A DNA stretch of 64,000 nucleotides. Source: an uncultured Pseudomonadota bacterium (GTDB lineage Bacteria > Oederibacteriota > Muellerivitia > Muellerivitales > Muellerivitaceae). Positions 23,608 to 53,931 of the stretch are shown in pieces. How positions within the stretch are numbered: the first letter of the stretch is position 1; each line of letters begins with the position of its first letter. The stretch covers positions 69,353 through 133,352 of the forward strand of contig CAWIIP010000005.1 of assembly GCA_963836235.1 (NCBI GenBank), read 5' to 3'. The notes beneath the pieces were generated by a model. The model saw nothing but the letters and a program-made list of their open reading frames with translations, made no database searches and was not told where the DNA came from. The translations under genes were made by a program, and so were the position numbers.

Positions 23608-23610
23608 AAG

Positions 23611-26157: not shown

Positions 26158-26179
26158 TTTTTCTCCCTCGCTTTAAAAC

Positions 26180-28621: not shown

Positions 28622-28659
28622 GTTAAAGAACCGCCCTCTGTGTCATGTTATCCGTTTAA

Positions 28660-35218: not shown

Positions 35219-36280
35219 TTACGTGTTTTGGGTCTTATGGGCAGTGGCATAGAGCAGAAGCCCGTTGACCACGAAAACTCTTTCCAGGGTAAAGCCATTC
35301 TCAGCCAAAGTCCTTTTTAACCGCACCTTGGTGAAATGGTGGATATGCCCGCAACGGTACTTATGGTAAACACTCCCTCGGATATAACCCATGTAAAGGC
35401 AGTTCAAGTTGAAAAGGATGAAGAAGGGCCCGAGGAAGAAATCGTAAGGAACGGTGATGAGAAATTTTCCATTGTCCTTCAGTATCCGGCGGACCTCCCC
35501 CAAAACATCCTTTTGGTTGAAGACATGCTCCAAAACCTCGGACATAAGCACCACGTCAAACCCCTTGGATTTTAAGCCCGTTTTGGACAGGTCCGCCGCG
35601 ACCTTGAAACCCGTCAGCCGCTTGTTCTTTTTCGCCCATTTCAACATTTGGGCATTGATGTCCACCCCGAAGACCGGCAGGTGGTGGATGTTCCATTTGC
35701 AGTTTCCGCAGCCCAGGTCCGCCATCTTCATACCCTTTTGGAAGGACTCGGATACGAATTGGGTTAACCGCTCATAACGGGAACGGTGATACCAAGCCCT
35801 GAACTTGCTCACTTTGGTTTCATCCGTCATTTCATCGTAATAACTTTCGTTCATCTCCTTGTATTCCACCTCGGCCATCTTTGCCGAGCTAAAAGTGGAG
35901 ATGCGGTTCAAAAAGGCGTTGGAAACCGCCAGGATGATCAGGCAGGTAATGAGCCCCTCGGGCAGGCTGAAGCCCTGGCTCATGAAAACCCAAAGCATGG
36001 CCGCGCTCCCTACCGAAACCCAAAAACTCATGAACAAATGCAGGGGGAACGAGGTTTTCATTTGAATTTCGTGGTTCACATAGACCACGTTGTAATAAAC
36101 GAAGTGGAAGGCTTGGTTGAAAAAGGTCCCGATGAAAAAAGCGATCATGGGATTCCAACCGAGGCGGAGGGCCAGGAAAAGGGTCACTCCCAAATTGAGC
36201 GCGGCGCCCAAAAATCCCCCCAGCAGGAAAATGAGGATCGCGGGGTGTCGCCAGCGTTGGACCACGGCATGCTCAGGCAT
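35219..36280 (-). CDS. GtrA-like membrane domain fused to class I SAM-dependent methyltransferase
   Basis: The N-terminal ~150 aa form a 4-TM GtrA-like module (ILIFLLGGFLGAALNLGVTLFLAL...). The C-terminal domain has MTase motif I MADLGCGNCKW and motif III DVVLMSEVLEHV. Confidence 0.65.
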   Translation of the reverse strand: MPEHAVVQRWRHPAILIFLLGGFLGAALNLGVTLFLALRLGWNPMIAFFIGTFFNQAFHFVYYNVVYVNHEIQMKTSFPLHLFMSFWVSVGSAAMLWVFMSQGFSLPEGLITCLIILAVSNAFLNRISTFSSAKMAEVEYKEMNESYYDEMTDETKVSKFRAWYHRSRYERLTQFVSESFQKGMKMADLGCGNCKWNIHHLPVFGVDINAQMLKWAKKNKRLTGFKVAADLSKTGLKSKGFDVVLMSEVLEHVFNQKDVLGEVRRILKDNGKFLITVPYDFFLGPFFILFNLNCLYMGYIRGSVYHKYRCGHIHHFTKVRLKRTLAENGFTLERVFVVNGLLLYATAHKTQNT

Positions 36281-36283
36281 GGT

Positions 36284-37093
36284 TTATCCTTTACGCGCGA
36301 CGATGAAGTAACAGGCTCCCGGCGCGCCATCGGTGTTGAGGTCTTTGCGCAACCAATTCGTCGCGAACCACTTGACCGGCCCACGGGGGCCGACGACCCA
36401 CCGTCCAAATAGAAGTTTGATGATCTTGGAAGGAAAGGCCAGGATCATCCAGCGTTCATAGGTATGAAAAGTCTTCAGGGGAATAATGTAGTCGGCCTTT
36501 TCCATTTTGAGCCCGGCTTTTTTCAAGCGTTTTTTCCAGATTTCGGCGTTGTCTACATGGAAGTGCTTGAAGGTTTGATTCAGTTTGTCCACATACAACT
36601 TGCCCAAGCCAGAAAGACCCACTTTCGAAAGCAGGTTACGGAAGAAGGAATCGTTGCTGAAGCATTCGCTAGGGACGGTAATTATCAGGCGGCCCTTAGG
36701 CTTCAGCACCCGGTGAATTTCCTTTAAGGCGCCGTCGATATCCGGAATATGTTCCAACACACAATTACTGACCACGGTCTTAAAGGAGTTTTTGGGGAAA
36801 GGCAGTTCAGTGGCGCTGGCGCAAAGAGCCTTTTTGTAGCTTTTACTCTCAACCGCTCTTTTAACCTCGTCCGGGTCTAGGTCAATGCCAGCTTCCAAGT
36901 TGCCACCAAAGGCGACCCTAGCCAGGAAGCCATCCCCGCAACCCACGTCCAAAACAGGATGTTCCAACTTTTCCTTCGAGAATCGGTGGCATTCCATCGA
37001 ACGCCAAAAAGCCATGGCGATGGGTGTTTTTTCCAGGTATTGGCGAAAAAATTCCTCACGGCTTCTTGGGTCAATTTTCAAATGCTTCTCCAT
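36284..37093 (-). CDS. Class I SAM-dependent methyltransferase
   Basis: Motif I VLDVGCGDGFLA, VVSNCVLEHIPD, and RVLKPKGRLIITVP. It stops 3 nt upstream of the GtrA-MTase gene. Confidence 0.75.
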   Translation of the reverse strand: MEKHLKIDPRSREEFFRQYLEKTPIAMAFWRSMECHRFSKEKLEHPVLDVGCGDGFLARVAFGGNLEAGIDLDPDEVKRAVESKSYKKALCASATELPFPKNSFKTVVSNCVLEHIPDIDGALKEIHRVLKPKGRLIITVPSECFSNDSFFRNLLSKVGLSGLGKLYVDKLNQTFKHFHVDNAEIWKKRLKKAGLKMEKADYIIPLKTFHTYERWMILAFPSKIIKLLFGRWVVGPRGPVKWFATNWLRKDLNTDGAPGACYFIVARKG

Positions 37094-37618: not shown

Positions 37619-38641
37619 ATGTCGTCGTTGAAAAGCACAAACACCAGTCAAGAAAACTTGGGAAATTCCAACCATCAACCGGCGCCAATGCCGCTTCAGG
37701 GAACGCCCCGGGCATCAGGCGGGGGCAAAACCTTCGTCCGGATTTTGATCGCCCTCGTGTTGATTGCGGGCGTGGCGGGAAGCTTGTATTTTTTCCTGGG
37801 GAAAACCCCTAAAGATTTCAAAGTCCAGTCCCTCGTTACCTTTTACGGAAATAACAACAAATGCGGGGCTTTTAATGCCTGGGGCATCGGGCCCGTTGGG
37901 AAGGACAAGGTGATGGTGGTGGACCAAGCGAACAACCGCATCTTGGTTTTCGATCGAAAAGGTAACTTCTTAAAAAGCTGGGGAAAACTCGGATCGGGCC
38001 CTATGGGCTTTCATAGCCCCACTGGAATGGTTTCGGACGACAAAATCGGCTACGTGATCGACTCCTGGAACAGCGCCATCAAAGGTTATGACGAAAATGG
38101 AAAACAAGTGTTTAAGCTTGATTTGGGAGACAAAAAGCTTTACGGCCCCCGGGGAATCGGCTTTGACGGAAAGAATTTCCTCCTGGCCGACACGGGAAAC
38201 CATCGGATCCTTTTGATCACACCCGATGGCCATACCGCCGTCTTTTGGGGAACAATGGGTGCAGAAGAAGGTCAATTCAATGAACCCGCTGATGTCGTTT
38301 CAGACGGCAAAGGAAATTATTTCGTGGCGGACACGCTAAACAACCGCGTCCAATGGTTAGATCAAGATGGAAAGGTGGTTAAAGTTTTTAAATTAGAAAA
38401 GAATGTAGCGGTTGTAACCCTGGATCAGGACGGAAGGCTTTATGTGTCAACCGCTACCAAGGATGGAGCCAGTTGCGTAATGGTTTACAGTCTCAAAAAG
38501 GGTTACTTGGGCGAACTTAAGGACGAAAACGGCTCTTTGGTTCCGGTGGACCGAGGCATGGCGGTTAGTTCAGATGATGTTTTAATGATTGCAGACAGTG
38601 ACCACGTTAATTTGTACCAAGTGCCTGCCACTGACCCCTGA
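37619..38641 (+). CDS. Membrane-anchored NHL-repeat beta-propeller protein (paralog 3)
   Basis: N-terminal tail, one TM helix (FVRILIALVLIAGVAGSLYFFL), then NHL blades. About 75% identical to 28660-29682. Confidence 0.7.
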   Translation: MSSLKSTNTSQENLGNSNHQPAPMPLQGTPRASGGGKTFVRILIALVLIAGVAGSLYFFLGKTPKDFKVQSLVTFYGNNNKCGAFNAWGIGPVGKDKVMVVDQANNRILVFDRKGNFLKSWGKLGSGPMGFHSPTGMVSDDKIGYVIDSWNSAIKGYDENGKQVFKLDLGDKKLYGPRGIGFDGKNFLLADTGNHRILLITPDGHTAVFWGTMGAEEGQFNEPADVVSDGKGNYFVADTLNNRVQWLDQDGKVVKVFKLEKNVAVVTLDQDGRLYVSTATKDGASCVMVYSLKKGYLGELKDENGSLVPVDRGMAVSSDDVLMIADSDHVNLYQVPATDP

Positions 38642-38744: not shown

Positions 38745-40639
38745 TTATCTACGCTTCTTAACCTTCGGCTTCTTCCCTAGAACGCGCCATATCCCATAGG
38801 ACAAGAATCCCGCGCAGGTGGCGAAGGCATCTCCGGTAGCGGCCTCGCCGGTATTCTCATCCACCGATTCACAGGCGATCCCATTGTCCATTTTGGCGTT
38901 CTTGAGAAACTTCAAGGCCCTGTCTTTTTGCTCCGCCAGCAGGCTGTTCACCGAAGCCAAAACCCAGGGGTGGGGGGCGTGGGCGCAGCCCACTTCCTCA
39001 AAGGGCTTGCCCGGGAAGGAATAGGGATAGTCCGCCGAGTAAATCCAATCCCGGCACCTCTTCCAAAGGGGGTAAGAAACCTTGCAAAATCCGTAATGGG
39101 GCAGAAGCAAAAGACTTCCGGGCGGTTCGTCGTAAAGCATGTGGCCGTTTTTCGGTTCCAGGTCCGCCGACCAGGCGAACATGCGGCCCTTGGGGCCCTT
39201 CACCACGCAATAGCGGATGATGGCGGCCTTCACCAGGCCCGCTTGGCGTTGGAGGCGGCTGATTTTGACCGACAAAAGCTTGTTCTTCTCCATGCGGTAA
39301 ATCTGAGCTAAGTCCATCAAGGCCCGCCAGACCAGGACGTTGTCGTAGGTCACATAGCGTTGGGGCCAAGGGTCATCGGAGGGCAGTAGCCAGGTTTGGT
39401 ACAGGTCTTTCTTAGGGTGCTTCTTCAGCTGCCAATTCCCTCTCGAACCTCTCCAGGCTTTCCCGAACCCCCGGCTGGTTTAAAAAGCCCAGGTCCCGGG
39501 TGGCCTCCAGGTAATTCCTCAGGGCGATCAACTGGCGCGCAAAACTCATCCAGTTCAAACCCCGGTTCCAATACCGCCCCGTTCAAATAACGGCTATGCA
39601 CTCCGAAATTCCTCGCCTGCCGGGTAAAGACGTAACCCAGGACTTTCCGGGCCCATTCCGGGTCCAAGGCCAGAATCGAGGGGAAGGACCAAAGCAGGGT
39701 ATCCCTGTCCCAATAGGCCCCACTGACATAATAACGGTTGCTTCGGGAAGTCAGGCAAACCGTTTCTTCCGTGTCGATGGTCACCCCGGTCGCGTAAAAG
39801 CGGTTGAAGAAGGCGTTCACGTTCATCAGGCTATCCAGCTGGGGGTCCTTGGTTTTGGTGGTCCGCTGTTTCTCTCCCAGCCACTTCACCGTTTGCTGCC
39901 GGAGGGCCTTCCCGCCCGTCCTTTGCAGTTCCCTAGCGGAGGAGAAGGCGCCGATCTCATCCAACCCGAGCCCGAAATAAAAGTGGGCCTGCCAGGCCTC
40001 TCCCTTTTTCACTTCCTTGGATTGAAGCCAATGTAAAAGCAGGCTCTCCTCCCCTTCCAATAAGGTTTCCCGTCCCGTGGGATTTAAGGCTTGAAGGCCT
40101 TTGCGGAAGAAGAAGCGGCTGGTCTTATCTTGGGGATAGGGTGCCAAGGCAACCAGGGGGGCGGGCGAACGGAATTCGAGGGCCGGCATGTCCTCCCAAG
40201 TCTTGGCCACTAAAAAGCGGCTTCCTTGGAGGGGTTTGGTGACATTGATGCTATGCAAAAGGGAAGACCAAGCTATATCCGCAGAAAGGCCGCAATAGAA
40301 GGAGTTCTGGGAAAGGTTGGAGATCCTCAGGGAAAGAACAAAACCCCTTTGGCCGAAGGGGCAAAAGTAAAGACCTTCCACTTCCAGCCAATCTTCCTTC
40401 AGACGGAACTTCGGCAGCCAGTCCCCTTCCCTTTCCCAGGTGAAGCGGCCATCCAGGACCAAATCCTCGTCATTGATGGTGATCCGGGGGGTCAAAAAGG
40501 GGGTCGCCCCTCCTGAAAAAGCCAATAGGCCGTTCGCGCCCATGTGAATGACATTCACCTGTTCCACCGCCCCATCCCTTTCACGGATGGTTGGCAGGGC
40601 CACATACTCGTTGCCAGTCGGGATGTATTTTTCTTTCAT
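38745..40639 (-). pseudogene. Frameshift-disrupted glycoside-hydrolase-like gene: N-terminal beta-sandwich plus (alpha/alpha)6-barrel; GH15/GH125/GDE-type, family uncertain
   Basis: Two adjacent ORFs (39425-40639 and 38745-39353) lie in different frames. The upstream ORF ends in a low-complexity tail (DRPEELPGGHPGPGLFKPAGGSGKPG). The downstream frame stays open upstream to 39479 (…DLYQTWLLPSDDPWPQRYVTYDNVLVWRAL). Both pieces look like parts of one (alpha/alpha)6 glycosidase (YVSGAYWDRDTLLW; NVLVWRAL). Confidence 0.4.
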
Positions 40640-40711: not shown

Positions 40712-42805
40712 TCACTGATTCGATGGCCGGTAAGCCCCCTGTTGCACCAGGTAATCCAGGCCCCTTTTGGCCTCCGCGTGATCCGGTTGGAGTTTCAACA
40801 CCTTTTCGAATAATTTGCCCGCCAGGGCATTATTGCCCGTCTGTAAAGCCACGACGGCCCAGTTGAAATAAGCGACGATATATTGGGGATCGAGTTGGGC
40901 GGCCTTTTCATACCAAGCCAAGGCATCGTTCACCCGGCCTACGTGGTAACAAGCGTTCCCCAGGTTATAGGCATATTGAGCATTTTGGGGGTCCCATTTC
41001 TGGGCCCACTGGAAACAATTCAAAGACCTCTCATAATCCTGTTCAAGTGTCAACAAATCAGCGGCCTTGGAATGGGACGTGAGTTGGGCCTTGGCGTCGT
41101 CCCCCTTGTCCTCATAAAAAGTCCCCAGGCTGTTGCGGAAAACGCCGTAATCCTTATAAATAAAATTGCGAGTCTGATCATCCATGACAAACCCGGCTTC
41201 CACCATGTGCCTCAACCTCAGGGCGTTCCAAACCGCGTCGGAACGGGCCTCGTCCAGAACCAGCTTTTCCCCCGGCAAAAAACCCTTACCCGTCACCCCA
41301 TAAAGAACCATTTTAATTTCCGGCAGGGGCCCGTCTTTATAACGGTTATAGCTGAAATAAAGTTCCCGGTCCGGGTTCTTATCGATCATCCATTTCGCCA
41401 AGGGGGATACCGCTTCATTACCCATCGGCTGGGTGGTTCGGGGAACTTTCAAACCCGGATGGAATCGGGCCAGATTCGCCCGTACCCATTCCATAGGCAA
41501 GCCGTCGATACCCACCATCGCGACGTCGGGACGCTTTTGTTCCACCCATTGGAAATACCAGGCGGGAAAAATGATGGTGTCGCCCCGGCAAAGGTACAAG
41601 GCGTTTCGGGGAAGGGCCTTGAATCCGTTCAAAACCGAATCGTAGGAATAGGTGTAATCAGTCTGCCTTTCGGTGGAAAAACGATGGACGGCCAACCCCA
41701 CCAGCCAAAGAAGAACAAAGCCAAAAATTATTTTTTCAATCCTCGGTCTCCATTCCGCCTTCAAAATTGAAAGACCGGTTTCCAAACCCCAGGCCGAAAA
41801 CAGAAGAATGAACAAATGGGCGGTCATCCCATACTCTTGGATGAGAAAAAACTTTTCCTTTGAGAGATTCAGGTAAATTCCTAAAATCAAAACGATGGAA
41901 ACCCACGGCGCGATAAATACCCAAGCCCAGGATTTCAGGGGAGACCACCGTCGAACCGCGTAGATTCCCCCGAAAGCCGCCAAAAGCATTCCCCCAAATT
42001 CCCAGAAAGCCGCTTGAAGATAGGTCCACCACTGTTGAAACCAGACCAAGGGACCCCCACCCACATCGGGCGCCAGATATTGGCTTCTTAAAAAGTCATA
42101 AACAAAGTTATGCCACGTGACGGGATTGCCCCAATTCAAAGCCGGGCCTTGAAGCGACCTCAGGGGAAGTAAAAGATAAAGGGAAAGGCCCAATAAGCCG
42201 GCGGAAGCCAATTGGATCAAGGGCTTTTGTTCAAACCCTTTTTCCTTCCATCTAAAATAAAAGAAAAGGCTGAAGCCCGGAAGGTAAGCCATCATGGTCA
42301 TCCAGTGATTGGCGAAGGAAAGCCCCAAAAGAAAGCCAAAAAATAATAGGCGCCCTTCGAAGAAGGCCCAAAGGATCGCCAGAACGAAAAGAGCCGTCAA
42401 TTGATAGATACCGGTCTTGGCGCTTAAGGCGGCCGGAAAGGTGGTGGCCCCGGCCAGCCAAAAGAGGGCGAAAAGGGCGGCCCATCGGTTGGAGACATGG
42501 AGTTTTTGCCTCAAAAAACCGTAAAGCAGCAGGCAAACCCCCGCCGCCAGACAGGCGGACAAGAGGTTCACCCGGAAGGGGTAATGGGACAGGGGAAGGC
42601 GGGAGAAAAGGAACCCCATTAGGGTGAAAAGGGGGTAACCGGGCGGGTGGGGTATCCCCAAACTCACACTGGCGGTGACTGTTTCCGGGCTGTCATCCGC
42701 GTAGAAAGTGGGATTCAGCCCCACCAGAGCGAAGGAAAAAACCAGAAAAACCAGGAGAAAGGGCGTCAGCCGCTCCCATCGGTTGGTTGGGGGAAGGTTG
42801 TCCAT
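40712..42805 (-). CDS. DUF2723 (TMEM260-like) GT-C-fold membrane protein with C-terminal TPR repeats
   Basis: N-terminal motif YADDSPETVTASVSLGIPHPPGYPLFTLMGFLF is the DUF2723 signature, followed by about 11 TM helices. The C-terminal ~180 aa have 3-4 TPR repeats (AQYAYNLGNACYHVGRVNDALAWYEKAAQLDPQY...). Confidence 0.7.
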   Translation of the reverse strand: MDNLPPTNRWERLTPFLLVFLVFSFALVGLNPTFYADDSPETVTASVSLGIPHPPGYPLFTLMGFLFSRLPLSHYPFRVNLLSACLAAGVCLLLYGFLRQKLHVSNRWAALFALFWLAGATTFPAALSAKTGIYQLTALFVLAILWAFFEGRLLFFGFLLGLSFANHWMTMMAYLPGFSLFFYFRWKEKGFEQKPLIQLASAGLLGLSLYLLLPLRSLQGPALNWGNPVTWHNFVYDFLRSQYLAPDVGGGPLVWFQQWWTYLQAAFWEFGGMLLAAFGGIYAVRRWSPLKSWAWVFIAPWVSIVLILGIYLNLSKEKFFLIQEYGMTAHLFILLFSAWGLETGLSILKAEWRPRIEKIIFGFVLLWLVGLAVHRFSTERQTDYTYSYDSVLNGFKALPRNALYLCRGDTIIFPAWYFQWVEQKRPDVAMVGIDGLPMEWVRANLARFHPGLKVPRTTQPMGNEAVSPLAKWMIDKNPDRELYFSYNRYKDGPLPEIKMVLYGVTGKGFLPGEKLVLDEARSDAVWNALRLRHMVEAGFVMDDQTRNFIYKDYGVFRNSLGTFYEDKGDDAKAQLTSHSKAADLLTLEQDYERSLNCFQWAQKWDPQNAQYAYNLGNACYHVGRVNDALAWYEKAAQLDPQYIVAYFNWAVVALQTGNNALAGKLFEKVLKLQPDHAEAKRGLDYLVQQGAYRPSNQ

Positions 42806-43081
42806 AGACGGGACATTTTAACCAAGGATGAATAAAGAAGAGTTTAAATTTTAAGAATTTACGGCCATATCAACCACGACTATTGGAGTTAACCCAACTT
42901 CGTCGCGATTAGTTGCTCCGGCGTCCACCGGATCGGCGGTCCCCTTTGCGCGGAGCCCCGGGGCGTTTGTCGATCAACCGGCCCGGAAAACGCCGGTCAC
43001 CTGGTTTCCGGCGTTCAGCTTTTCGTTTATTGATAACGGCACCGGTCTTTTTCTTTTTCAACATGCCCAAGCCTCCTTACC

Positions 43082-44836
43082 CTAAAACAAAATGGCCCGT
43101 AACTCGGACGGAACGTTATCTCGGATCAGCTTCAACACCTCATCGGAGGTCTTCATTTGCAGGGCGGCCTTGGCGATTTCCTTGGATTTCTCGAAGGGCA
43201 TCATGCGGATGACCTTCTTGATTTCCGGGATGACGGAAACGCTCACCGAAAACTCATCCAGCCCCATCCCCAGCAGAAGCGGGACAAACTGTGGGTCGCC
43301 GGCCATCTCGCCGCACATGCCTACCCATTTCCCGGCGTTGTGGCAGGCGTCCACCGTCATCCGAATCAGCCGCAGGATAGCGGGATTAAGCGGGTCATAA
43401 AGATAAGCCACCGATTCGTTCACCCGGTCCACCGCCAGGGTATATTGGATGAGGTCGTTGGTACCAATCGAAAGGAAGTCCAGTTCTTGAATGAGAATAT
43501 CCGCCACTACCGCCGCGGAGGGGATTTCGATCATGGCGCCCACCTCGATGCCGGAACGGAAAATCTGCCCCTCTTTCTTCAACTGTTGAACGCACTGGTT
43601 GAGGAGCACTTTTGATTCACGAACTTCCGCCAAGGTGGAAATCATCGGAAACATAACTTTGATAGGCCCATGGGCCGCGGCTTTGAGGATGGCCCGAAGC
43701 TGGGCCTTAAAAAGGTCCGGGCGCTTCAGGCATAAACGGATGGCCCTTAACCCCAGGAAAGGATTACTTTCGTTGAAGGCGTTGAGGTGGGATAAAAACT
43801 TATCCCCGCCCAGGTCGAGTGTCCGGATGATGGCTGGATTGACCCCCGTTTTGGTAGCCAGTTCTTTGTAGGCTAAGTACTGTTCCTCTTCCGTCGGAAT
43901 CTCCTCCCGGTTCAGGAACAAAAACTCGGTTCGGAAGAGCCCAATCCCTTCCGCGCCATGCTTGAAAATTTCATCCAATTCCTGGGGAATCTCAATATTG
44001 GCGGCCAGGGTCACTTGGTGCCCATCCGGGGTTGTCGCGGGAAGGTTGCGCAGTTCTTCCAGGCTCTTCTGAAAAGCCTCGTAACTGTCTTTTAACCGCT
44101 GATACTGCTTAAGCGTGGGGGGGAGGGGGTTTACCACCACCAGGCCCTTGTTGCCGTCCACGATGATCATGTCCCCGTCTTGTACTTCGGCGGTAAGAGT
44201 TTGCATGCCCAGGACCGCCGGAAGCCCCAAGGAACGGGCGACGATAGCCACGTGGGAAGTCCGCCCCCCCACATCCGTGCAGAAGCCCTTGACGGTGCCG
44301 GTTTGCATGCTGACCGTATCGGAAGGCGCCAGGTCGTTGGCGATAACAATGACTTCCCGGTCCAGTTTCTTTAGTTGGTCCTTCTCGGCGCCGGTTAGGT
44401 TCTGGACAAGACGATTACCTACGTCCTGGATATCCCCGCCCCTTTCCCGGAAATAATTATCGTCGAGGGACGCCATAACCGTTTTAAACTTTTCCAGCCC
44501 CTCATACAGGAGGAACTCGGCGTTCAAACGGCGGGTTTGGATAGATTTGGGGATTTCCTCCATGAAAAGGGGGTCATCCAGGACCACTTGGTGGGCTTGG
44601 AATATCGCGGCGTGTTCTTCCCCTAATTTCGCCTTCATCTTTTCTTCAAGTTCCGAGATTTGGACACGGGTTTTCTCGAGCGATAACTGGTAACGGTCCA
44701 GTTCGTCCTTGATCTCCTCGGCCCTTAAATTCCGCCGGGGCGCGGAAAGACCTTGCGGATGGTAAAGAAAAGCGGGGCCGATGGCGATGCCGCCGGAAGC
44801 CGGAATTCCATTGTAAATTTTCTCTGCCACGAACAA
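43082..44836 (-). CDS. ptsI: Phosphoenolpyruvate-protein phosphotransferase (PTS Enzyme I)
   Basis: 584 aa. Phosphohistidine-domain motif GGRTSHVAIVARSLGLP and the PEP-utilizing C-terminal domain. Confidence 0.9.
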   Translation of the reverse strand: MFVAEKIYNGIPASGGIAIGPAFLYHPQGLSAPRRNLRAEEIKDELDRYQLSLEKTRVQISELEEKMKAKLGEEHAAIFQAHQVVLDDPLFMEEIPKSIQTRRLNAEFLLYEGLEKFKTVMASLDDNYFRERGGDIQDVGNRLVQNLTGAEKDQLKKLDREVIVIANDLAPSDTVSMQTGTVKGFCTDVGGRTSHVAIVARSLGLPAVLGMQTLTAEVQDGDMIIVDGNKGLVVVNPLPPTLKQYQRLKDSYEAFQKSLEELRNLPATTPDGHQVTLAANIEIPQELDEIFKHGAEGIGLFRTEFLFLNREEIPTEEEQYLAYKELATKTGVNPAIIRTLDLGGDKFLSHLNAFNESNPFLGLRAIRLCLKRPDLFKAQLRAILKAAAHGPIKVMFPMISTLAEVRESKVLLNQCVQQLKKEGQIFRSGIEVGAMIEIPSAAVVADILIQELDFLSIGTNDLIQYTLAVDRVNESVAYLYDPLNPAILRLIRMTVDACHNAGKWVGMCGEMAGDPQFVPLLLGMGLDEFSVSVSVIPEIKKVIRMMPFEKSKEIAKAALQMKTSDEVLKLIRDNVPSELRAILF

Positions 44837-44935
44837 CTCCTTTAAATTTCAGCCATTGGCGGTCAGCGGGTGGCTGGCAGCTTGTTTATCTTTCATATTT
44901 TGCTGACAGCCATCGGCTGCCGGCTAAAAGCCGGT

Positions 44936-45208
44936 TTATTCCTTTTCCCCGAACTTGTTTGCGAATAGCTGTTTTAAAGCCGCCAAGGCTTCTTTGGCGT
45001 CGTCACCCTCGGCCGTCATTTCCAATTCCGTTCCCTTGGCCGCGGCCAAAGTCATCAGGCCCATCAGGCTTTTAGCATTTACGTTTTGAATGCCGTGGTT
45101 GATAAAAATCTGGCTTTTGAATTTATTGGACACCTTCACCAACTCCGCGGCGGCCCTTAAATGAAGCCCCAGCTTATTGATGATGGGCAATTTTTCGGTT
45201 ACTTTCAT
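44936..45208 (-). CDS. ptsH: HPr-family phosphocarrier protein
   Basis: 90 aa. Active-site region NKLGLHLRAAAELV contains the catalytic His. Confidence 0.85.
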   Translation of the reverse strand: MKVTEKLPIINKLGLHLRAAAELVKVSNKFKSQIFINHGIQNVNAKSLMGLMTLAAAKGTELEMTAEGDDAKEALAALKQLFANKFGEKE

Positions 45209-45329
45209 TGGACTCCCCTTTGATCCTTCATTCTCCTACCCCCAAAAGAAGAGGGGGCGCCATCTTGTCTTTCATAAAAGGGTTGAACTTCAACCCGAAA
45301 ACGAGAAAGAAGATGGCATGTCCCCTGTT

Positions 45330-46181
45330 TCATTGCCCACTTCCCAGCGGGAGAACAGGGGGCGCACTCAGTGTCGGCCAAAAAGCCAGCATGAGAGCGA
45401 ATAAAACCGCGGCGTAAAACATTTGGCTGGGGCTGATCTTGCGGTGCAGGGCAAAGGTAAAAAGCCCTACAATCGCGGTAAAAAAAGTCAGCTTGAGAAT
45501 GAACAACCCCACTTCTTTTTCCAATACCGACAAGTTGACGAAAACAATCAAAACACCCAAAAGCAGGATGGAAGCCAGCTTTAAACCCCGAATCGCTTCC
45601 TGAAAACCATACTTTCGGAGGGTCAAAACCACCTGGTCGCTATGGCGATACCCTTGCAGGAATCCCATGAGCCGGATGCCCACATGGGCGATATTGAAAA
45701 CCGCCAGGAAGAGGAGCGGGATAATCCAATATTGCCCCTTGATCTGAAACGCGTGGGACAAAACCAGCGTCACCGCGATCAACCCGCAATAAGGGCGGAT
45801 GGTGGCCCAAAAAAGGTTGTCCCCCATGGCCGCGATAGGGCCCATCATTCCAATTTTTAGCGCGCTGATCTCGTCCTCTTTCTGCTTTTGCTTGTTTCTG
45901 GGCTCCTTCTGTTTGTCCTCTTCCATTCGAAGGATAGCCCCCAACACGAAGGAAGCCATGTAAGGATGGGTATTGAAATACTCCATGTGCCGGGTCATGG
46001 CCTGGGCCCTCTCCTCGCGCGAAGTGTAAATTTTTCTCAAGACCGGCATCAAGACAAAGGTTACCCCATAGCTCAAATAACGCTCGAAATTCCAAACCAC
46101 CTGGAGAAAAAAGACCCTCCAAAAACAATGGGCCAAGTCAAAGACCGTAACCCGGGCCGCGGGCTTCTCGTCGGGGGTCAA
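45330..46181 (-). CDS. PTS mannose/fructose/sorbose-family IID component
   Basis: EIID signature HMEYFNTHPYMASFVLGAILRMEE. 283 aa. Confidence 0.8.
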   Translation of the reverse strand: MTPDEKPAARVTVFDLAHCFWRVFFLQVVWNFERYLSYGVTFVLMPVLRKIYTSREERAQAMTRHMEYFNTHPYMASFVLGAILRMEEDKQKEPRNKQKQKEDEISALKIGMMGPIAAMGDNLFWATIRPYCGLIAVTLVLSHAFQIKGQYWIIPLLFLAVFNIAHVGIRLMGFLQGYRHSDQVVLTLRKYGFQEAIRGLKLASILLLGVLIVFVNLSVLEKEVGLFILKLTFFTAIVGLFTFALHRKISPSQMFYAAVLFALMLAFWPTLSAPPVLPLGSGQ

Positions 46182-46957
46182 GCGGGTTCCCCTTTCCCCA
46201 CGTAAAACAAGGTGAGGATAAACCCCGCGAAGAGGGCAATGGCGACGAGGTAAACTCCCGGCAAGGGCGACAAGACCGCCAGGGTCATCATGGACACAAT
46301 GGACAGGATCAAATAGATGGCGGTCTTTTTTTCAACCAAGAGGTCGATGACCGCCGAGCACCCTAGGGCCAAGAGAAGCCAATGGGCATAGTAAAAACCT
46401 TCTATGACCTTGCCATCCAAAAGGCTGCCTAAAAGCGTATAAAACCCGGCGCTGAAATGGGCGATGGTCAGGCAAGCCGCCGACACGAGGAACCCTTTCA
46501 ATAGTTGTTCCATCAACACGAAAAAGTTAATCCACTCAAATGTTTTTAAATGGGAGCTGAAGGCCATCCGCTGCGCGAAATGGAGCCACCGGACATGGAA
46601 CTTACGTAGGGCCACTTCGACCTCCGTGCTCAAAACCGCCAGGGGGATCGCGATTCCCAAAGCATAGGTCATGACGGCTTCGGGGCTTTGGCCTTTTACC
46701 AACCCACAGGCCAGGGCGACGGCGGTGCCCGTTAACATCGTCAGGTCCAGGGGTAAATGGGCGCCCACCGGCAAATCACCGATCCAAATGAGTTCTATCA
46801 AAGCCCCCATTTCCAATCCGATGTCGGCCCGTCCAATAAGCCAGCCCACCACCGGGCCGGTCACAATAGGCCTTGAAACCATAAACTGGCCGACCGCCGT
46901 CTCGTCTAAACTTAAAAAGGCCATCACGAGCGCGATGGAAAACCAGTGATCCATCAT
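46178..46957 (-). CDS. PTS mannose-family IIC component
   Basis: 259 aa with 6-7 TM helices. It lies between the IIB/GH57 genes and IID and overlaps both neighbours by 4 nt. Confidence 0.7.
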   Translation of the reverse strand: MMDHWFSIALVMAFLSLDETAVGQFMVSRPIVTGPVVGWLIGRADIGLEMGALIELIWIGDLPVGAHLPLDLTMLTGTAVALACGLVKGQSPEAVMTYALGIAIPLAVLSTEVEVALRKFHVRWLHFAQRMAFSSHLKTFEWINFFVLMEQLLKGFLVSAACLTIAHFSAGFYTLLGSLLDGKVIEGFYYAHWLLLALGCSAVIDLLVEKKTAIYLILSIVSMMTLAVLSPLPGVYLVAIALFAGFILTLFYVGKGEPA

Positions 46958-49119
46958 TTGCCTTTTTTCTCCAATAGCTGGGTGACCACCTTCGTTTTAA
47001 AGGTTTCCGCGGGTTTGAGGGAGACTTCCCATCCCAATAAAAGACAGGAGCCTTGATAGACCTTCTCAAAACCACCCTCGGATTGGGAAATGGTTTCAAC
47101 CGGATACCGCCAAAACTTGGCCGGATGGGGAGACTTAAAGTTGATTTCCAATTCCAACCAGCCGTCCCGCATGCCCATCTCCGTCACTCCCGTTTCCTCT
47201 CCAACACTGTTTAACCGGGGCTGGAGGAGATCCCGTCCTTTCACAAAATAATTCCGGTCCGGAGAATCTCCCGCAAGGAGGGTAAGGTTCCATTCCACGA
47301 GAAAAAGGAAATTCTGGCTGTGAGGGCCCTTATTTTGGAGTTCGTAGCCTGCTTCCAGCGTGAAATCTCCTGCCTCAAACTCGAGTTTTTTAGCCAACTT
47401 TAACGGCAGTCCCTCCACATGCCCCAACCGGGATAGGACCACTTGTGCCGGTTGGCCTTTTTTCTTGGGTGCTTGGATTTTCGATTCAAATAGGCCGTTA
47501 CGAAAATCCCCCCGTTCCTCGTAACGATTCGTCATCATTTGCTCAACCGTGGTTAAATCCGTCACGAAATGTTCGGTCAGGCTAACTCGGCGGGCCGAAT
47601 CATAGAAAAGTTTCTTGTCCAGTCCTGGTTCCTTCATACGGACCATGTCATGGATGCTGGACACCCCACCCTGGGGCTGGCCCTGGTTTGCGGCGGCCAC
47701 GAGTTTGTTATGGTAGGCCTCTTTGCGGCGGGTCAGGGTATCGGAAAGGTTGATTGGGTTTTTCAGGTAATCTAACTCGGTCAAGACCCCGCCAACAGTT
47801 TCCAACAGGGCGTGATAATTCAGGCTCTCCACGACAATTTCATCTCTTCCATCTTTATTGAAGTCCGTCTCTTGGACTTGTACCCCAAAAGTCGAAGAAG
47901 GCAGGAGGGATTCTGCCAGTTTTTCCGCTTCAATCAATTCACGGTAAACGGCAAATCGCAAATGGTTCAAGTAAAGACCACCGAAAACACCATGCCAGTA
48001 AGGGCAATTGCACTCTCCCCGGTAAAGAGCCCGAACGGCTTTATCCAAAACCGCTTTTTGCTTAGAGGTGGCTTTTTTAGACAACCTCTGCCGGGCTTTC
48101 TCGACCTTGGCGGAGACCCATAAAAGCTTTTTATGCATATGACTGCTCTCGACATATTTGGTGAAAAAGTTTCGCCAAAATCCACCTTTTAAATAACGCT
48201 CGTAACGGGGCATTTCTCCCCGATCTCTCACCTCATGGCGGATGTGCTCAAATTCCTCGGCCGCGTCTGCCGGTAAAGCCCATTCTCCCATTTCGGTATA
48301 GGAACCCGTGGGCAGACTGAGGATGCCCTTTGGCGCCTGCTGGGCGACATATTCGGAGAATGTGGCCAGATTCAGCCAGGAGGAATTATCTTCCAGAGCG
48401 GTAAAGAACCTCTCCAACCAACCTTCCTCGTAAACCCACTTGTAGGTATCAGGCCATCCCCCGAACTTTTCACCGTCGTCCATCAAGACCACGCAACGGT
48501 CCCCCTCTTCCGTGGCGACGGACTGGAGATATTGAAGGCTTTCTTCCACGGCCTTGAAAGGAACCATGTATCGCATCTTTTCAGAAATGGGAAAAACACC
48601 CGCCGTTTCACCCTGCTCTTCCATGAGGTAATAGCCGAAGGTTTCCTCTTCCTTTAATCCCACGGCCTTGAAGTGAGCGTCGTCCATCACGATATATTTC
48701 ACGCCAGCATCCGCGAGGTTTTTGGTCAAATGGGGTTCCCAAACACGCTCAGCGGTCCACATACCTTTCGCCTCAACTTTAAAATGCTTCCTTAGATAGT
48801 CGGTCAGCATCCGGATTTGTCCCGCCTTATCCCGATCCGGAAGAACCGACAGAATAGGCTCATACATGCCCCCCGTAAAAAACTCAATCTGGCCCCGGTC
48901 GGCCATTTCCTTCAACATTTTGAAATAGGGGGGACGGTTTTGTTCCAGCCATTCCAAAAGGGGTCCGGTCACGTGAAAAGTGCATTTCACCTTGGGATGC
49001 CTATGGAGAATGTGGAGGAAGGGTTCATAAGACTTCTTGAACAATTCCTCAAAAACTTGACCGAAATTGCCTACCGGTTGATGGTTGTGGACACCGAAGA
49101 TAAACGTGACTTTTTTCAC
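46954..49119 (-). CDS. Glycoside hydrolase family 57 alpha-glucan-active enzyme (4-alpha-glucanotransferase/amylopullulanase-like) with C-terminal extension
   Basis: The N-terminus MKKVTFIFGVHNHQPVGNF matches the GH57 HxHQP start. A (beta/alpha)7 region follows, then about 250 extra C-terminal residues. 721 aa. Confidence 0.75.
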   Translation of the reverse strand: MKKVTFIFGVHNHQPVGNFGQVFEELFKKSYEPFLHILHRHPKVKCTFHVTGPLLEWLEQNRPPYFKMLKEMADRGQIEFFTGGMYEPILSVLPDRDKAGQIRMLTDYLRKHFKVEAKGMWTAERVWEPHLTKNLADAGVKYIVMDDAHFKAVGLKEEETFGYYLMEEQGETAGVFPISEKMRYMVPFKAVEESLQYLQSVATEEGDRCVVLMDDGEKFGGWPDTYKWVYEEGWLERFFTALEDNSSWLNLATFSEYVAQQAPKGILSLPTGSYTEMGEWALPADAAEEFEHIRHEVRDRGEMPRYERYLKGGFWRNFFTKYVESSHMHKKLLWVSAKVEKARQRLSKKATSKQKAVLDKAVRALYRGECNCPYWHGVFGGLYLNHLRFAVYRELIEAEKLAESLLPSSTFGVQVQETDFNKDGRDEIVVESLNYHALLETVGGVLTELDYLKNPINLSDTLTRRKEAYHNKLVAAANQGQPQGGVSSIHDMVRMKEPGLDKKLFYDSARRVSLTEHFVTDLTTVEQMMTNRYEERGDFRNGLFESKIQAPKKKGQPAQVVLSRLGHVEGLPLKLAKKLEFEAGDFTLEAGYELQNKGPHSQNFLFLVEWNLTLLAGDSPDRNYFVKGRDLLQPRLNSVGEETGVTEMGMRDGWLELEINFKSPHPAKFWRYPVETISQSEGGFEKVYQGSCLLLGWEVSLKPAETFKTKVVTQLLEKKGK

Positions 49120-49129
49120 TTTAGACCTC

Positions 49130-49624
49130 TCACTGACCGCTGTTCTTCAACTGATGAATGTATTTTTCCAATGATTCTTTGACATCACCTGGCACCGCTC
49201 GCACTTCCAGTTCCACTCCCTGCCTTTTTAGTTCTTTAAAGGACTCAATATCAGCTTCATGAACGCAAACCGTTTTACTAACTTGTTGTTTCCCCTCACA
49301 AAAATGCATCCCCCCAACATTCACCGCCGATAAGGCCCCACCCCTCTTGCCAAACTCCACCACATCCGAAGGATTAGAAAAAAGAAGGAGGCTACGATCC
49401 TTGGAATCCCCCTTGCGACAGTTTTGGGCCGCCTCTTCCACGGTATAAAAACTCACCTTTAACCCCGAGGGAACCGCCATCTCCATGAGGGTCTTTTGCA
49501 TCGAATTTTTGGCAATAACGTCATTTACCACGACCAGACGCTCAATTCCCAGGGCCTTAACCCAACCCACAACCACTTGCCCATGTATAAGCCGGTCATC
49601 AATTCGAATCAGTTGGATTTCCAT
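49130..49624 (-). CDS. PTS mannose/sorbose-family IIB component
   Basis: IRIDDRLIHGQVVVGW contains the phosphorylatable His of EIIB-Man. Confidence 0.8.
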   Translation of the reverse strand: MEIQLIRIDDRLIHGQVVVGWVKALGIERLVVVNDVIAKNSMQKTLMEMAVPSGLKVSFYTVEEAAQNCRKGDSKDRSLLLFSNPSDVVEFGKRGGALSAVNVGGMHFCEGKQQVSKTVCVHEADIESFKELKRQGVELEVRAVPGDVKESLEKYIHQLKNSGQ

Positions 49625-49650
49625 TCGGCCTCTCGAATCCAGAGTTAGCC

Positions 49651-50052
49651 CTATTTTTTAAGGAGTTCTAACGACGTCACAATACTTTCTCGGGTCGCGC
49701 TTTGAATCTCCGGAATCAACCGGTTCATTTCGGCTTCATCCCGACTCGAAACGACCTTGATCAGCATCGGCAGGTTCACTCCAGTCACAATCTGAAGTTT
49801 ACGGGTTTGAGCCAACCGAAGAGCCACATTAAAAGGCGTGCCACCCAGCATATCCACCAATACCAGCGTCCCCGTTCCCATTGGATCCACGGTTTCAAGA
49901 GCTTTCTCCATTTTAACCTGGAAAGACTCCATAGAATCCTGTGAAATTAGATCGATCGCCAAAATGGCTTCCGTTTCACCCAAAATCATTCGGAGGGTGG
50001 AAAGAAGGGCGAGGCCGAGTTCCCCGTGGGTTGCCACAATCACGCCTATCAT
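49651..50052 (-). CDS. PTS mannose-family IIA component
   Basis: MIGVIVATHGELG contains the EIIA-Man active-site His. 133 aa. Confidence 0.75.
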   Translation of the reverse strand: MIGVIVATHGELGLALLSTLRMILGETEAILAIDLISQDSMESFQVKMEKALETVDPMGTGTLVLVDMLGGTPFNVALRLAQTRKLQIVTGVNLPMLIKVVSSRDEAEMNRLIPEIQSATRESIVTSLELLKK

Positions 50053-50400
50053 TAAAAATCTCCTTTAAAATCGCCAAAAGGTTTTTTGAGTCTGTTTCAA
50101 TAGTCCGAAGATGCTTTTTTTCACCAAGAGATTAAAAGGAACCCCCGGCATTATCAACTTAATGTTCCCGGGAATGGGGATATAACCGAGAAATCCCAGC
50201 GGAGAGCCAGAAAAATCAGAGTAAATACATGGTTTTCAATAATAAAAATCGACTGCTTGTTACTTTTTGGGCACTGAAATTGAAAAAAGCGGAAACCTCT
50301 CCACGTTGACATTCACCATTTCAATGGACAATCTTATGAAGGAAAGCATTTCTTGGCGCCTGTTAAAGATAAAGCTGCTCAGGTATCGTTCGAACATTAA

Positions 50401-51672
50401 TTACATTACCAGCCTTCGGACAATGGCTTTTCCCAGCTTTTCCGGGCTATGCCGCACGTAATCTTCCTGATGGAGTAAATTCACTTGTATTAATTCAACA
50501 TCAAGAGCCTTAACTGCTTCTTCATCCACCACAACGGGCTTCTGTCCATTAGCTTCGTAACGGGCCAATAGTTGCGCGGGAACCTTTTCCTTGTTAGCGA
50601 TGACGTAGTGGATAAACCCAGGACTGGTGTGCTTGAGGATGGCTTTCACGTGGTCAGAAACGGTAAGGTTATCCGTTTCTCCCGGTTGTGTCATGACATT
50701 ACAAACATACATTTTCACCGCGCGGGCCAGGGCGATCGTTTCGGCCACTTCCGGAATCAAAAGATTCGGAAGAATGCTGGTATAAAGACTACCCGGCCCA
50801 AAGACAATGGCGTCCGCTTCCAATATGGCCTTCAAAACATCTTTGTTGGGGCGGATTTTTTTTTCTTTTAGCATAATCCGGTCAATAGGGGATTTTCCGT
50901 TTGGAATCCGGGATTCCCCAGTAATAATTTTTCCATTTTTCAGCTTGGCCTGGAGCGTCATATTCTCGAAAGTGACGGGCATGACGGTGCCCCGGGTCGC
51001 CAATACACGGCTGGATTCCTCCACGGCCCTGCCAAAATCACCCGTGATTTCCTTCATAACTGTAATAAAAAGATTTCCAAAACTATGGCCCTTCAGGTCG
51101 CCGTGGCCCTTGAACCGATATTGGAAAAGATCTTTGAGGAGGGTTTCCTGGTCGGATAAAGCAACAATGCAATTGCGGATGTCCCCCGGAGGCGGGGTTC
51201 CAAAATCCCTTCTGAGCCTACCCGAACTTCCGCCGTCATCGGCGACCGTCACAACCGCGGTAAGGTTGCTGGTGTAGTGTTTGAGGCTGGAAAGGACATT
51301 GGGAAGCCCCGTACCCCCGCCCACCGCCACAATCCGGGGCCCGCGCTTGAGGCGTGTTCGCTGATAGGCGATATTGATGAATTCCTTCTCCCTCGCAGGA
51401 GCGTAAACCGTGAGTACCGAAAAGATCAAACGCCTTATACCCAAAATCAGCCCCCAAAAAGCCAGGAGCATGAAAAGAAAATCGACGAACTTGAGGTGTT
51501 TGAGGTGATCTTCCAGTTCGACAATTACCGGTGGGCGCAAATGGATACCCCCCGTATGTTGACTCATGACGCCTGAGAATCCGACGTAAAGGACAATCAT
51601 CGAGAGGACAATGAGAAAAATCCAGCGTTTGAGACGCAAACCAGGATAGAGCCAGGGGAAACTCAACATCAA
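50401..51672 (-). CDS. YvcK/CofD-like (UPF0052) gluconeogenesis-factor family protein with N-terminal TM extension
   Basis: VAVGGGTGLPNVLSSLK ... VVTVADDGGSSGRLRRDFG ... GDIRNCIVAL are YvcK family motifs. The first ~90 aa carry two TM helices. It overlaps hprK by 4 nt. Confidence 0.8.
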   Translation of the reverse strand: MMLSFPWLYPGLRLKRWIFLIVLSMIVLYVGFSGVMSQHTGGIHLRPPVIVELEDHLKHLKFVDFLFMLLAFWGLILGIRRLIFSVLTVYAPAREKEFINIAYQRTRLKRGPRIVAVGGGTGLPNVLSSLKHYTSNLTAVVTVADDGGSSGRLRRDFGTPPPGDIRNCIVALSDQETLLKDLFQYRFKGHGDLKGHSFGNLFITVMKEITGDFGRAVEESSRVLATRGTVMPVTFENMTLQAKLKNGKIITGESRIPNGKSPIDRIMLKEKKIRPNKDVLKAILEADAIVFGPGSLYTSILPNLLIPEVAETIALARAVKMYVCNVMTQPGETDNLTVSDHVKAILKHTSPGFIHYVIANKEKVPAQLLARYEANGQKPVVVDEEAVKALDVELIQVNLLHQEDYVRHSPEKLGKAIVRRLVM

Positions 51673-52640
51673 ATTTTGCCCTTGAGTTTGGGAGAATTGC
51701 GCCTGGCCGTTTCCTCCGCCATCATACGGGAAACTCGGTCGGCAAACTCCTGGGCAGTGAAGTAACCCAGTTTCATCAGGCGGTGGTTCATGGCCGCTAC
51801 TTCGATGATCACCGCCAGGTTCCGGCCCGGCCTCACCGGAATAAGGAACATGGGAATTTCCACGTCAAAAATCTTGTGCGTGGCGGGCGTCAAGCCCAGC
51901 CGGTCGTATTCCTTTTTATTGTCCCATTCTTCTAACCGGATAATCAGTTCGATACGTTTTTTGTCGCGAATCGCTCCCACACCAAAGAGACTTTCAATAT
52001 TAATGATCCCCAAGCCTCTTATCTCCATGTGATGCTTGATGATTTCAGACCGGGAACCCATCAATATCCGGTTGGCCAGCCGCTTGATGTAAACCAGGTC
52101 GTCCGCCACCAGCCGGTGGCCACGTTCTACCAGATCCAAGGCGCACTCACTTTTCCCGATGCCCGAGTTTCCCAAAATAAGTATCCCCACTCCATAGACA
52201 TCCAAAAGCGTCCCATGGATGGTCGTTTCAGGGGCGAATTCCTCCTCAAGGAAAACCGAAATTTCAGAAACAAACTTGGTCGTGGGCGTAACAGTCGAGA
52301 AAAGGGGGATTTTCCGCGCCTCGGCCTCGGAAACCAAATCTGTGGGCGGTTTCATTTTGTGGGTCACTACGATGCAGGGAAGCCGATGGGACAATAGGGT
52401 CTTCAATATTTTTTTACGCTGGGTTGGTTTTAGCGTTCGAAGGAAATGGATTTCGGTTTTCCCCAAAATCTGGAGGCGTTCGTAAGGAAACCACTTGAGG
52501 TACCCGGTCAGGGCCATTCCCATCCGGTTGATGTCCACACTGACGATAAACCGATCGGACATTCCCGCTTCGGCCACGGGGGAAAGATGGAGCCGTTCCT
52601 TGGCCTGTTGAAAAAAAGACTCCACGGAAATTTTCTTCAT
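51669..52640 (-). CDS. hprK: HPr kinase/phosphorylase
   Basis: P-loop GILILGNSGIGKSECALDL and the HprK C-terminal signature. 323 aa. Confidence 0.9.
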   Translation of the reverse strand: MKKISVESFFQQAKERLHLSPVAEAGMSDRFIVSVDINRMGMALTGYLKWFPYERLQILGKTEIHFLRTLKPTQRKKILKTLLSHRLPCIVVTHKMKPPTDLVSEAEARKIPLFSTVTPTTKFVSEISVFLEEEFAPETTIHGTLLDVYGVGILILGNSGIGKSECALDLVERGHRLVADDLVYIKRLANRILMGSRSEIIKHHMEIRGLGIINIESLFGVGAIRDKKRIELIIRLEEWDNKKEYDRLGLTPATHKIFDVEIPMFLIPVRPGRNLAVIIEVAAMNHRLMKLGYFTAQEFADRVSRMMAEETARRNSPKLKGKI

Positions 52641-52680
52641 GGTCCCCGTCGCTTTGGCTTTTTCCCTGCCGGGAAGCCGG

Positions 52681-53145: not shown

Positions 53146-53202
53146 GAAACTTCCTCCCGAAAAGCCAGTTGATAACTTTCAGCCGCAACTAAAACCCGCC
53201 GT

Positions 53203-53742: not shown

Positions 53743-53931
53743 TATTTTTCCTATTGGATAAAAAAGACCGGATTTCTTCAGCCCTATTCGGGCGGAAAAA
53801 CCCTATAAAAGAATTGTCATTCTAACACTCGAAAACCGGAAGTCAATCCGCACTCGGTTTTCATAACATTGGACAGCCAGAAGTTCCAAGAGGAATCACT
53901 TTGTCTCCAAATAGAATGTTCAATTGATTTG

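Follow-up and report, generated by a model that had tools for sequence, protein, structure and literature searches.

Does a working counterpart of the human protein O-mannosyltransferase TMEM260 exist in bacteria? This question is raised by a gene on the minus strand (40712..42805) of a 64,000-nucleotide stretch of DNA from an uncultured bacterium (contig CAWIIP010000005.1, positions 69,353 to 133,352), which is referred to here, at its full length, as the window. A preliminary description of the window placed the product of this gene in the DUF2723/TMEM260-like family and proposed that it might be a glycosyltransferase with a protein acceptor. As judged from its sequence, the gene is an intact, well-conserved bacterial member of the TMEM260/GT117 family.

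TMEM260 was identified in 2023 as a protein O-mannosyltransferase for IPT domains, a function that the preliminary description stated correctly, and the same study already pointed out TPRs at the C terminus and, in a single sentence, "distant homologs in bacteria" (PMC10214176). The enzyme belongs to CAZy family GT117 (PMC11292533). Its mechanism was reported in a 2026 preprint with a cryo-electron microscopy structure (10.64898/2026.03.17.711096). The protein consists of an 11-helix glycosyltransferase type C (GT-C) transmembrane module (residues 24-415), a Rossmann-like "palm" in the lumen of the endoplasmic reticulum (ER; residues 416-564), and TPR "fingers" (residues 565-706). Four residues contact mannose: two in the first luminal loop (D52 and H67), one in the donor-loading loop (Y267), and one in transmembrane helix 10 (R355). 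The phosphate is contacted by R264, and the palm supplies the catalytic base, D441 (10.64898/2026.03.17.711096). Of the alanine variants at these six positions, D52A, H67A, R264A, Y267A, and D441A are inactive, and only R355A is still active (ca. 20%). TMEM260 without its TPR asparagine ladder, which is needed for acceptor recruitment, has ca. 10% of its activity left. The preprint regards this division of labor between the membrane core and the palm as setting TMEM260 apart from other GT-C enzymes (10.64898/2026.03.17.711096).

Family assignment and conservation of the active site

The gene is an uninterrupted open reading frame (ORF) with an ATG start and a stop codon, and its predicted product has 697 amino acids. 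Homologs with 71 to 84% identity are also 697 amino acids long and span 100% of the query. Therefore, the start codon and the boundaries of the gene appear to be sound. A profile search, one of the checks suggested in the preliminary description, gave a clear match to PF11028 over residues 38-187 (E value, 3.8e-18; 66.3 bits versus a gathering cutoff of 24.2 bits; profile positions 1-174 of 179). The current Pfam name of this model is "Protein O-mannosyl-transferase TMEM260-like." The N-terminal block quoted in the preliminary description as the family hallmark, VSLGIPHPPGYPLFTLMGFLF, is located at residues 47-67. Ten Pfam TPR models, including TPR_2, TPR_1, TPR_16, TPR_8, and TPR_11, scored above their cutoffs over residues ~588-686, and the precomputed annotation of close homologs also includes the newer model PF28495 (TMEM260_2). 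NCBIfam yielded no specific model for the protein, only TPR matches that were all below threshold. In a phmmer search of the chain sequences in the PDB, human TMEM260 was found (9rql_A; E value, 3e-20; 75 bits; also 9rqm and 9rqn) in an alignment of ~440 residues that paired query residues 16-457 with residues 33-489 of 9rql_A. When the TPR tail was removed from the query, human TMEM260 was the sole match. These PF11028, TPR, and TMEM260 sequence match scores are far beyond chance and bear out the original family assignment.

Membership in the TMTC or PMT family was also considered. The Pfam scan of the protein gave no TMTC/DUF1736 or PMT_2 match, even at an E value of ≤1, and no PMT, PMT_4TMC, or MIR match. 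Both assignments were rejected because these hidden Markov models did not match.

An AlphaFold2 model built on an alignment of homologs (mean predicted local distance difference test score, 94.7; predicted template modeling score, 0.92) has a three-domain layout of membrane core, alpha/beta domain, and TPR domain. The membrane region is all-helical up to approximately residue 380, and its predicted fold is that of a GT-C enzyme. In the alpha/beta domain, helices flank five strands (residues 403-406, 429-432, 482-484, 498-502, and 505-509), and seven TPR-type helices follow between residues 543 and 688. The preliminary description likened the TPR tail to that of the TMTC enzymes. The tail is present in both the Pfam matches and the model, but it is not a TMTC-like novelty, because a core followed by a Rossmann-like domain and TPRs is the architecture of TMEM260 itself. 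The asparagines at TPR position 6, N614 and N648, are conserved among the homologs, as in the asparagine ladder of the human enzyme; a one-to-one mapping of the TPR asparagines onto human N602, N638, N642, and N680 could not be drawn.

Conservation was evaluated in an alignment of 89 sequences, comprising the TMEM260-like protein and 88 homologs that ranged from 84% down to ~20% identity. Exactly four columns were invariant: D38, H53, P58, and D409. Of these, D38, H53, and D409 correspond to D52, H67, and the catalytic base D441 of human TMEM260. The phmmer alignment further pairs human E55 with E41, R264 with R240, Y267 with Y243, and R439-G440-D441 with R407-G408-D409. E41 was retained in 87 of the 89 sequences, R240 in 73, Y243 in 70 (with phenylalanine in 4 others), and G408 in 71; position 407 was lysine or arginine in 54. 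The preliminary description expected conserved catalytic acidic residues in the first periplasmic loop. The first extracytoplasmic loop is acidic (A-D37-D38-S-P-E41), and D38 and E41 are indeed conserved, but the catalytic base is located in the palm (D441 in the human enzyme, by prediction D409 here). Because the base sits in the periplasmic alpha/beta domain, inspection of the loop covers one half of the active site and misses the other; conservation extends to both. The position of human R355 is occupied by E324, in a column that is variable among bacterial homologs (D/S/N/V/E). Thus, of the six human residues tested by mutagenesis, five are conserved and, apart from the R355 position, the whole split active site of human TMEM260 appears from the alignment to be retained. 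The codon coordinates of the active-site residues were confirmed in the window (Table 1).

Table 1. Coordinates of the TMEM260-like gene, its modules and active-site codons, and neighboring features in the window
Feature	Position	Strand	Remarks
Complete TMEM260-like GT-C glycosyltransferase gene (PF11028/CAZy GT117-type, predicted)	40712..42805	-	ORF, Pfam, phmmer, AlphaFold2
Residues 1-380, transmembrane GT-C core	41666..42805	-	Putative polyprenyl-phosphate-sugar binding module
Residues 30-74, first extracytoplasmic loop	42584..42718	-	Counterpart of human sugar-recognition motif; D38, H53, P58 invariant
D38 codon	42692..42694	-	Aligned to human D52
H53 codon	42647..42649	-	Within G-I-P-H-P-P-G-Y-P block; aligned to human H67
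Residues 239-255	42041..42091	-	Counterpart of human donor-loading loop; aligned to human R264/Y267 region
R240 codon	42086..42088	-	Aligned to human R264 (phosphate)
Y243 codon	42077..42079	-	Aligned to human Y267 (mannose)
Residues 386-530, periplasmic alpha/beta (Rossmann-like) palm	41216..41650	-	Contains R407-G408-D409; AlphaFold2 model, alignment
D409 codon	41579..41581	-	Predicted catalytic base; R407-G408-D409 aligned to human R439-G440-D441
Residues 543-688, TPR domain	40742..41179	-	Seven helices, ~three repeats; N614, N648 (TPR position 6), N617
GH125-like gene	38745..40639	-	Two frameshifts; 72 bp downstream of TMEM260-like gene; context, not part of the enzyme
PTS/rpoN block	43082..55461	-	rpoN, hprK, yvcK/CofD-like, EIIB-Man, GH57, EIIC, EIID, ptsI
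Fused MFS/spermidine-synthase-like protein	30180..32414	-	744 amino acids; between YfhO-like and NHL genes; NCBIfam NF037959 above cutoff
Apparent operon: NHL propeller, three membrane paralogs, YfhO-like	18719..29682	-	
PMT_2+PA14 protein	15266..18286	-	1006 amino acids; adjoins apparent NHL/PMT_2/YfhO operon
GT2 gene, polyprenyl-phosphate-sugar-synthase-like	7124..7828		Resembles AglJ, ArnC, DPMS, PpgS
GT2 gene, polyprenyl-phosphate-sugar-synthase-like	10213..11085		Resembles AglJ, ArnC, DPMS, PpgS

Proposed reaction and alternatives

There is little doubt in our view that the protein is a GT-C enzyme that uses a polyprenyl-phosphate sugar. Beyond the family, fold, domain order, and residue conservation documented above, we infer a lipid carrier, mannose, a protein acceptor, and, as the modified proteins, exported polypeptides. 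With modest confidence, we favor an inner-membrane TMEM260-family enzyme that would move one hexose, probably mannose, from polyprenyl-phosphate to serine or threonine residues of such polypeptides. The proposal in the preliminary description of a glycosyltransferase that might act on protein is the best reading. In the proposed reaction, the membrane core would bind a polyprenyl-phosphate-hexose, in bacteria presumably undecaprenyl-phosphate-mannose, with R240 holding the phosphate and D38, H53, and Y243 holding the sugar at the membrane-periplasm interface. The C-terminal TPR domain would grip an extended, still unfolded stretch of the exported polypeptide, and the palm would place a serine or threonine beside D409. 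D409, acting as the general base, would deprotonate the hydroxyl, and one sugar would be added in an inverting reaction on the periplasmic side of the membrane.

A serine or threonine of a protein is, in our estimate, slightly favored as the acceptor, because the predicted base in the palm sits in a [KR]-G-D motif and because of the TPR asparagines. The main alternative is that the same fold and donor chemistry serve a periplasmic glycan or glycolipid, such as the lipopolysaccharide core, a capsule, or a cell-wall polymer. ArnT, the Aft arabinosyltransferases, and many bacterial GT-C enzymes act in this manner, and the TPR domain would then make contacts with an assembly machine. TPR repeats are absent from 17 of the 89 homologs, and therefore peptide acceptors need not be used throughout the family. 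However, the predicted catalytic base is carried on the soluble palm, in a conserved [KR]-G-D motif that corresponds to residues in contact with the backbone of the peptide in the human enzyme (10.64898/2026.03.17.711096), and the conserved asparagines at TPR position 6 are typical of TPRs that grip peptides. Furthermore, the sole characterized member of the family is strictly a protein O-mannosyltransferase (PMC10214176). We regard a glycan or glycolipid acceptor as unlikely.

Whether the sugar transferred by the proposed protein glycosyltransferase is mannose is an evenly balanced question, because three of the four sugar contacts are kept, the R355 contact is lost, and the hints from genomic context are weak. 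A protein O-glycosyltransferase for another sugar, for example glucose, galactose, N-acetylgalactosamine, or a sugar of the aminoarabinose type, would draw on the matching undecaprenyl-phosphate donor. The substitution of E324 for a human mannose contact is consistent with this possibility, as are the two GT2 genes in the window, whose similarity to AglJ, ArnC, PpgS, and dolichyl-phosphate hexose transferases is comparable to their similarity to DPMS and in all cases is far below the NCBIfam cutoffs. Conservation of the counterparts of D52, H67, and Y267 argues for mannose instead, as does the conserved partner gene described below, which is related to GH125, a glycoside hydrolase family known only for alpha-mannosidases, and which keeps the PSDD motif with the acid residue (PMC9883506). 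The mannose-family phosphotransferase system (PTS) encoded just upstream adds weak support, since such transporters are not mannose specific. The presence in the window of two GT2 genes of the polyprenyl-phosphate-sugar-synthase type is compatible with mannose as well. On balance, another sugar on a protein acceptor seems rather improbable. It is very unlikely that the protein is a relative without catalytic activity, or that it serves as a TPR scaffold or chaperone and only resembles a glycosyltransferase, because the conservation pattern, in which the sole invariant columns contain residues needed for human catalysis, is that of purifying selection on the active site; nothing specific favors this explanation beyond a literature on bacterial members that has no report of activity.

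Several observations weigh against a protein O-mannosyltransferase. In agreement with the preliminary description, no bacterial member of the family with biochemical characterization was found in the literature searched, which did not extend to subscription-only papers. Replacement of the R355 contact by E324, in a column that varies across bacteria, means that sugar specificity may differ from that of human TMEM260. Searches for the full, core, and relaxed forms of the human IPT sequon, P-x5-P-x3-G-P-x2-[GA]-G-G-x2-[ST], found none in the window or in 85 related loci (1.22 Mb in total), and therefore a bacterial sequon may differ; IPT/TIG-domain proteins were also not seen near the gene. The absence of TPR repeats from some homologs, noted above, belongs here as well. 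There was no family-wide partner gene for a donor synthase or a substrate among the immediate neighbors (64 downstream and 73 upstream). The neighbors that recurred, GlnE (13 of 73) and DUF4837 (6 of 64), look like lineage synteny, and PMT_2, GT2, YfhO, pilin-like N_methyl, and prepilin peptidase genes were each found at 2 to 4 neighbor loci. Finally, the GH125-like partner protein has no signal peptide and is therefore predicted to be cytoplasmic, so that it would not serve periplasmic glycoproteins, and its gene is frameshifted in the window.

Genomic context

The direct neighbors of the TMEM260-like gene are ptsI upstream and the frameshifted GH125-like gene downstream. The GH125-like gene can be read only in three frames, -1 (40633..39530), -2 (39582..39439), and -3 (39425..38775), with frameshifts near 39430 and 39530-39580, and it could be a pseudogene or reflect an indel error in the assembly. 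An intact version encoding 623 to 630 amino acids lies directly downstream of the TMEM260-like gene in related loci with four different upstream contexts. These are L001 (58% identity to the query; NHL, Kelch, and FlgD_ig genes upstream), L081 (75%; ptsI), L082 and L083 (84%; accA, in L082), and L085 (44%; carbonic anhydrase). The gene is missing beside the TMEM260-like gene in L002 (43%) and L084 (51%). Thus, the two genes form a pair that is conserved at the level of the clade, over 44 to 84% identity.

Similarity of the partner protein to GH125 is limited to its C-terminal ~190 residues (PF06824, E value of 1e-19; BT3781, 1e-11; characterized exo-alpha-1,6-mannosidases, 1e-4 to 1e-6), and its N-terminal ~400 amino acids have no Pfam match. 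The P-S-D-D motif is conserved. In CpGH125, whose key residues are D220 and E393, this motif holds the catalytic acid D220 (PMC9883506). The partner is suggestive of a link between the TMEM260-like gene and mannose. Alternatively, the hydrolase could work with two adjacent S-adenosylmethionine (SAM)-dependent methyltransferases (269 and 353 amino acids; 35219..37093, minus strand), by analogy with the mycobacterial methylmannose-polysaccharide cluster, in which a hydrolase is accompanied by two methyltransferases and a mannosyltransferase (PMC9883506). Both methyltransferase genes are likewise conserved in L081 and L082, close to the GH125-like gene.

Upstream, ptsI ends 276 bp before the TMEM260-like gene on the same strand. 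It is the last gene of the PTS/rpoN block, in which a GH57 alpha-amylase/4-alpha-glucanotransferase gene is embedded between the IIB and IIC genes of the mannose-family PTS. The order from yvcK through ptsI is the same in L002 and L081, and hprK also precedes yvcK in L081. A functional link of the TMEM260-like gene to the PTS operon was rejected. The linkage was judged to be inherited synteny because it is kept in the window, L002, L081, and L084 and is broken in L001, L082, and L085. That the ptsI junction is a site of rearrangement is shown by L001, in which an insertion separates ptsI from the TMEM260-like gene: among its NHL, Kelch, and FlgD_ig genes is one for a Mutator-family transposase (2994..4214 of L001, minus strand). 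A 51-codon ORF at 42909..43064 (minus strand), MLKKKKTGAVINKRKAERRKPGDRRFPGRLIDKRPGAPRKGDRRSGGRRSN, is extremely basic, starts 18 bp past the ptsI stop codon, and has a strong ribosome-binding site, AAGGAGG. At the same position in L081 (9727-9876), conservation of the protein sequence is 80% and no stop interrupts the frame; the ORF was not called as a gene in that locus. A scan of both intergenic regions for sigma-70 promoters and terminators gave no informative site on the strand of the TMEM260-like gene.

The genes downstream of the GH125-like gene encode, in order, an NHL propeller, the two SAM-dependent methyltransferases, a YfhO-like protein, and a fused major facilitator superfamily (MFS)/spermidine-synthase protein. 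Beyond these are an NHL gene, three PMT_2/PA14-type paralogs, a second YfhO-like gene, and then the gene for the 1006-amino-acid PMT_2+PA14 protein. The preliminary description placed the TMEM260-like gene beside a GT-C island and next to PMT-like, YfhO-like, and Dpm1-like genes. All of these genes are in the window, but the description is only approximate. The island begins 5.6 kb away with the nearest YfhO-like gene (from 35148), the PMT_2-like genes, whose Pfam scores do not exceed the cutoff, are 14 to 24 kb away, and both Dpm1/ArnC-like GT2 genes are 30 to 33 kb away, with matches far below the equivalog cutoffs. PMT_2(+PA14) membrane genes and NHL-propeller genes recur within 5 to 8 kb of the TMEM260-like gene in L001 and L002.

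The three membrane paralogs in the apparent operon (813 to 848 amino acids) are 27 to 35% identical and have weak similarity to PMT_2, and two of the three have similarity to the PA14 domain. Four NHL-repeat beta-propeller genes are present in the window, at 8029..9033 (plus strand), 28660..29682 (minus), 37619..38641 (plus), and 12768..14813 (minus). Three of the NHL proteins (334 to 340 amino acids) are paralogous, two being 66% identical to each other and ~33% identical to the third, and each has a basic N terminus followed by a single hydrophobic helix (type II anchor). The NHL genes are interspersed with the GT-C genes, and their products could be substrates of the GT-C enzymes or act together with them.

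Distribution and comparison with known systems

Finding a DUF2723 protein in a bacterial genome is nothing unusual, and the gene analyzed here is an ordinary member of a family that Pfam and CAZy already list; it does not represent a new kind of system. A scan of genomes with the motif G[IV][PA]HP[PT]GYP yielded at least 558 confirmed loci. The best 80 of these were all from metagenome-assembled genomes, from FCPU426, Firestonebacteria, Hydrogenedentota, Ignavibacteriota, Elusimicrobia, the Patescibacteria group (Candidate Phyla Radiation, CPR), Verrucomicrobiota, Gemmatimonadota, Chloroflexota, and others. Among the matches listed, the nearest genome relatives were metagenome-assembled genomes labeled "uncultured proteobacterium" (58%) and candidate division FCPU426 (43%). 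Query residues 1-560 were used in an exhaustive phmmer search, which retrieved 10,266 cluster representatives at an E value of ≤1e-3, and 4,166 at an E value of ≤1e-10. Sources that give the protein a name list it as "hypothetical protein," "tetratricopeptide (TPR) repeat protein," or "DUF2723 domain-containing protein."

The analysis shows that all three domains of TMEM260 are retained in a bacterial member and that the human catalytic residues, including the unusual base in the soluble domain, dominate the invariant positions. The named residues, together with farnesyl-phosphate-mannose as a known synthetic analog of the donor, make the function of more than 10,000 bacterial DUF2723 clusters directly testable, and the conserved GH125-like partner gene provides a lead in this clade. 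A broader and more speculative proposal, about which we are somewhat doubtful, is that bacterial GT117 enzymes carry out widespread, unrecognized periplasmic protein O-mannosylation (or O-hexosylation) outside the Actinobacteria. They would use a TMEM260-like split site and, via the TPRs, each recognize a linear sequon of its own in exported proteins that are still unfolded, and in this candidate-phylum clade the pathway would be genetically coupled to a cytoplasmic GH125-like mannoside hydrolase. If this is true, TMEM260-type glycosylation would be an ancient bacterial invention, and bacterial GT117 enzymes would offer a tractable model for a human disease enzyme.

Other GT-C families resemble the protein less closely than TMEM260 does. 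ArnT, PglB, and AglB belong to other families, modify other acceptors (lipid A, or asparagine within a sequon), and have no TPR domain, and the donors of PglB and AglB are diphosphate-linked oligosaccharides, unlike those of the TMEM260 family. The PMT/POMT enzymes (GT39, including actinobacterial Pmt) are 8 to 12% identical in structural alignments and have a MIR domain inserted in a loop, in place of the C-terminal palm and TPRs found here. TMTC1-4 (GT105), the ER O-mannosyltransferases for cadherins, share a GT-C membrane domain that is followed by luminal TPRs. Like TMEM260, they carry out Dol-P-Man-dependent O-mannosylation of Ig-like domains (PMC10214176, PMC11292533). However, in TMTC proteins a long TPR array directly follows the membrane domain, whereas in the protein studied here ~3 TPRs lie behind an alpha/beta domain that carries the predicted catalytic base.

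Human TMEM260 (GT117; 9RQL, 9RQM, and 9RQN) differs from the bacterial protein in several respects. The phmmer match is limited to query residues 16-457, the R355 counterpart is not conserved, and the human TPR fold has five helices, in contrast to seven in the model of the bacterial protein. The human donor lipid is dolichol, whereas the bacterial donor must be a bacterial polyprenol, and the human enzyme is in the ER, whereas the bacterial protein is predicted to be placed in the inner membrane, facing the periplasm. The two proteins nevertheless share PF11028, a near-equal length (697 versus 707 amino acids), and the same order of modules in similar sizes, from GT-C core to alpha/beta palm to TPR, and the counterparts of D52, H67, R264, Y267, and D441 are kept together with the R-G-D motif.

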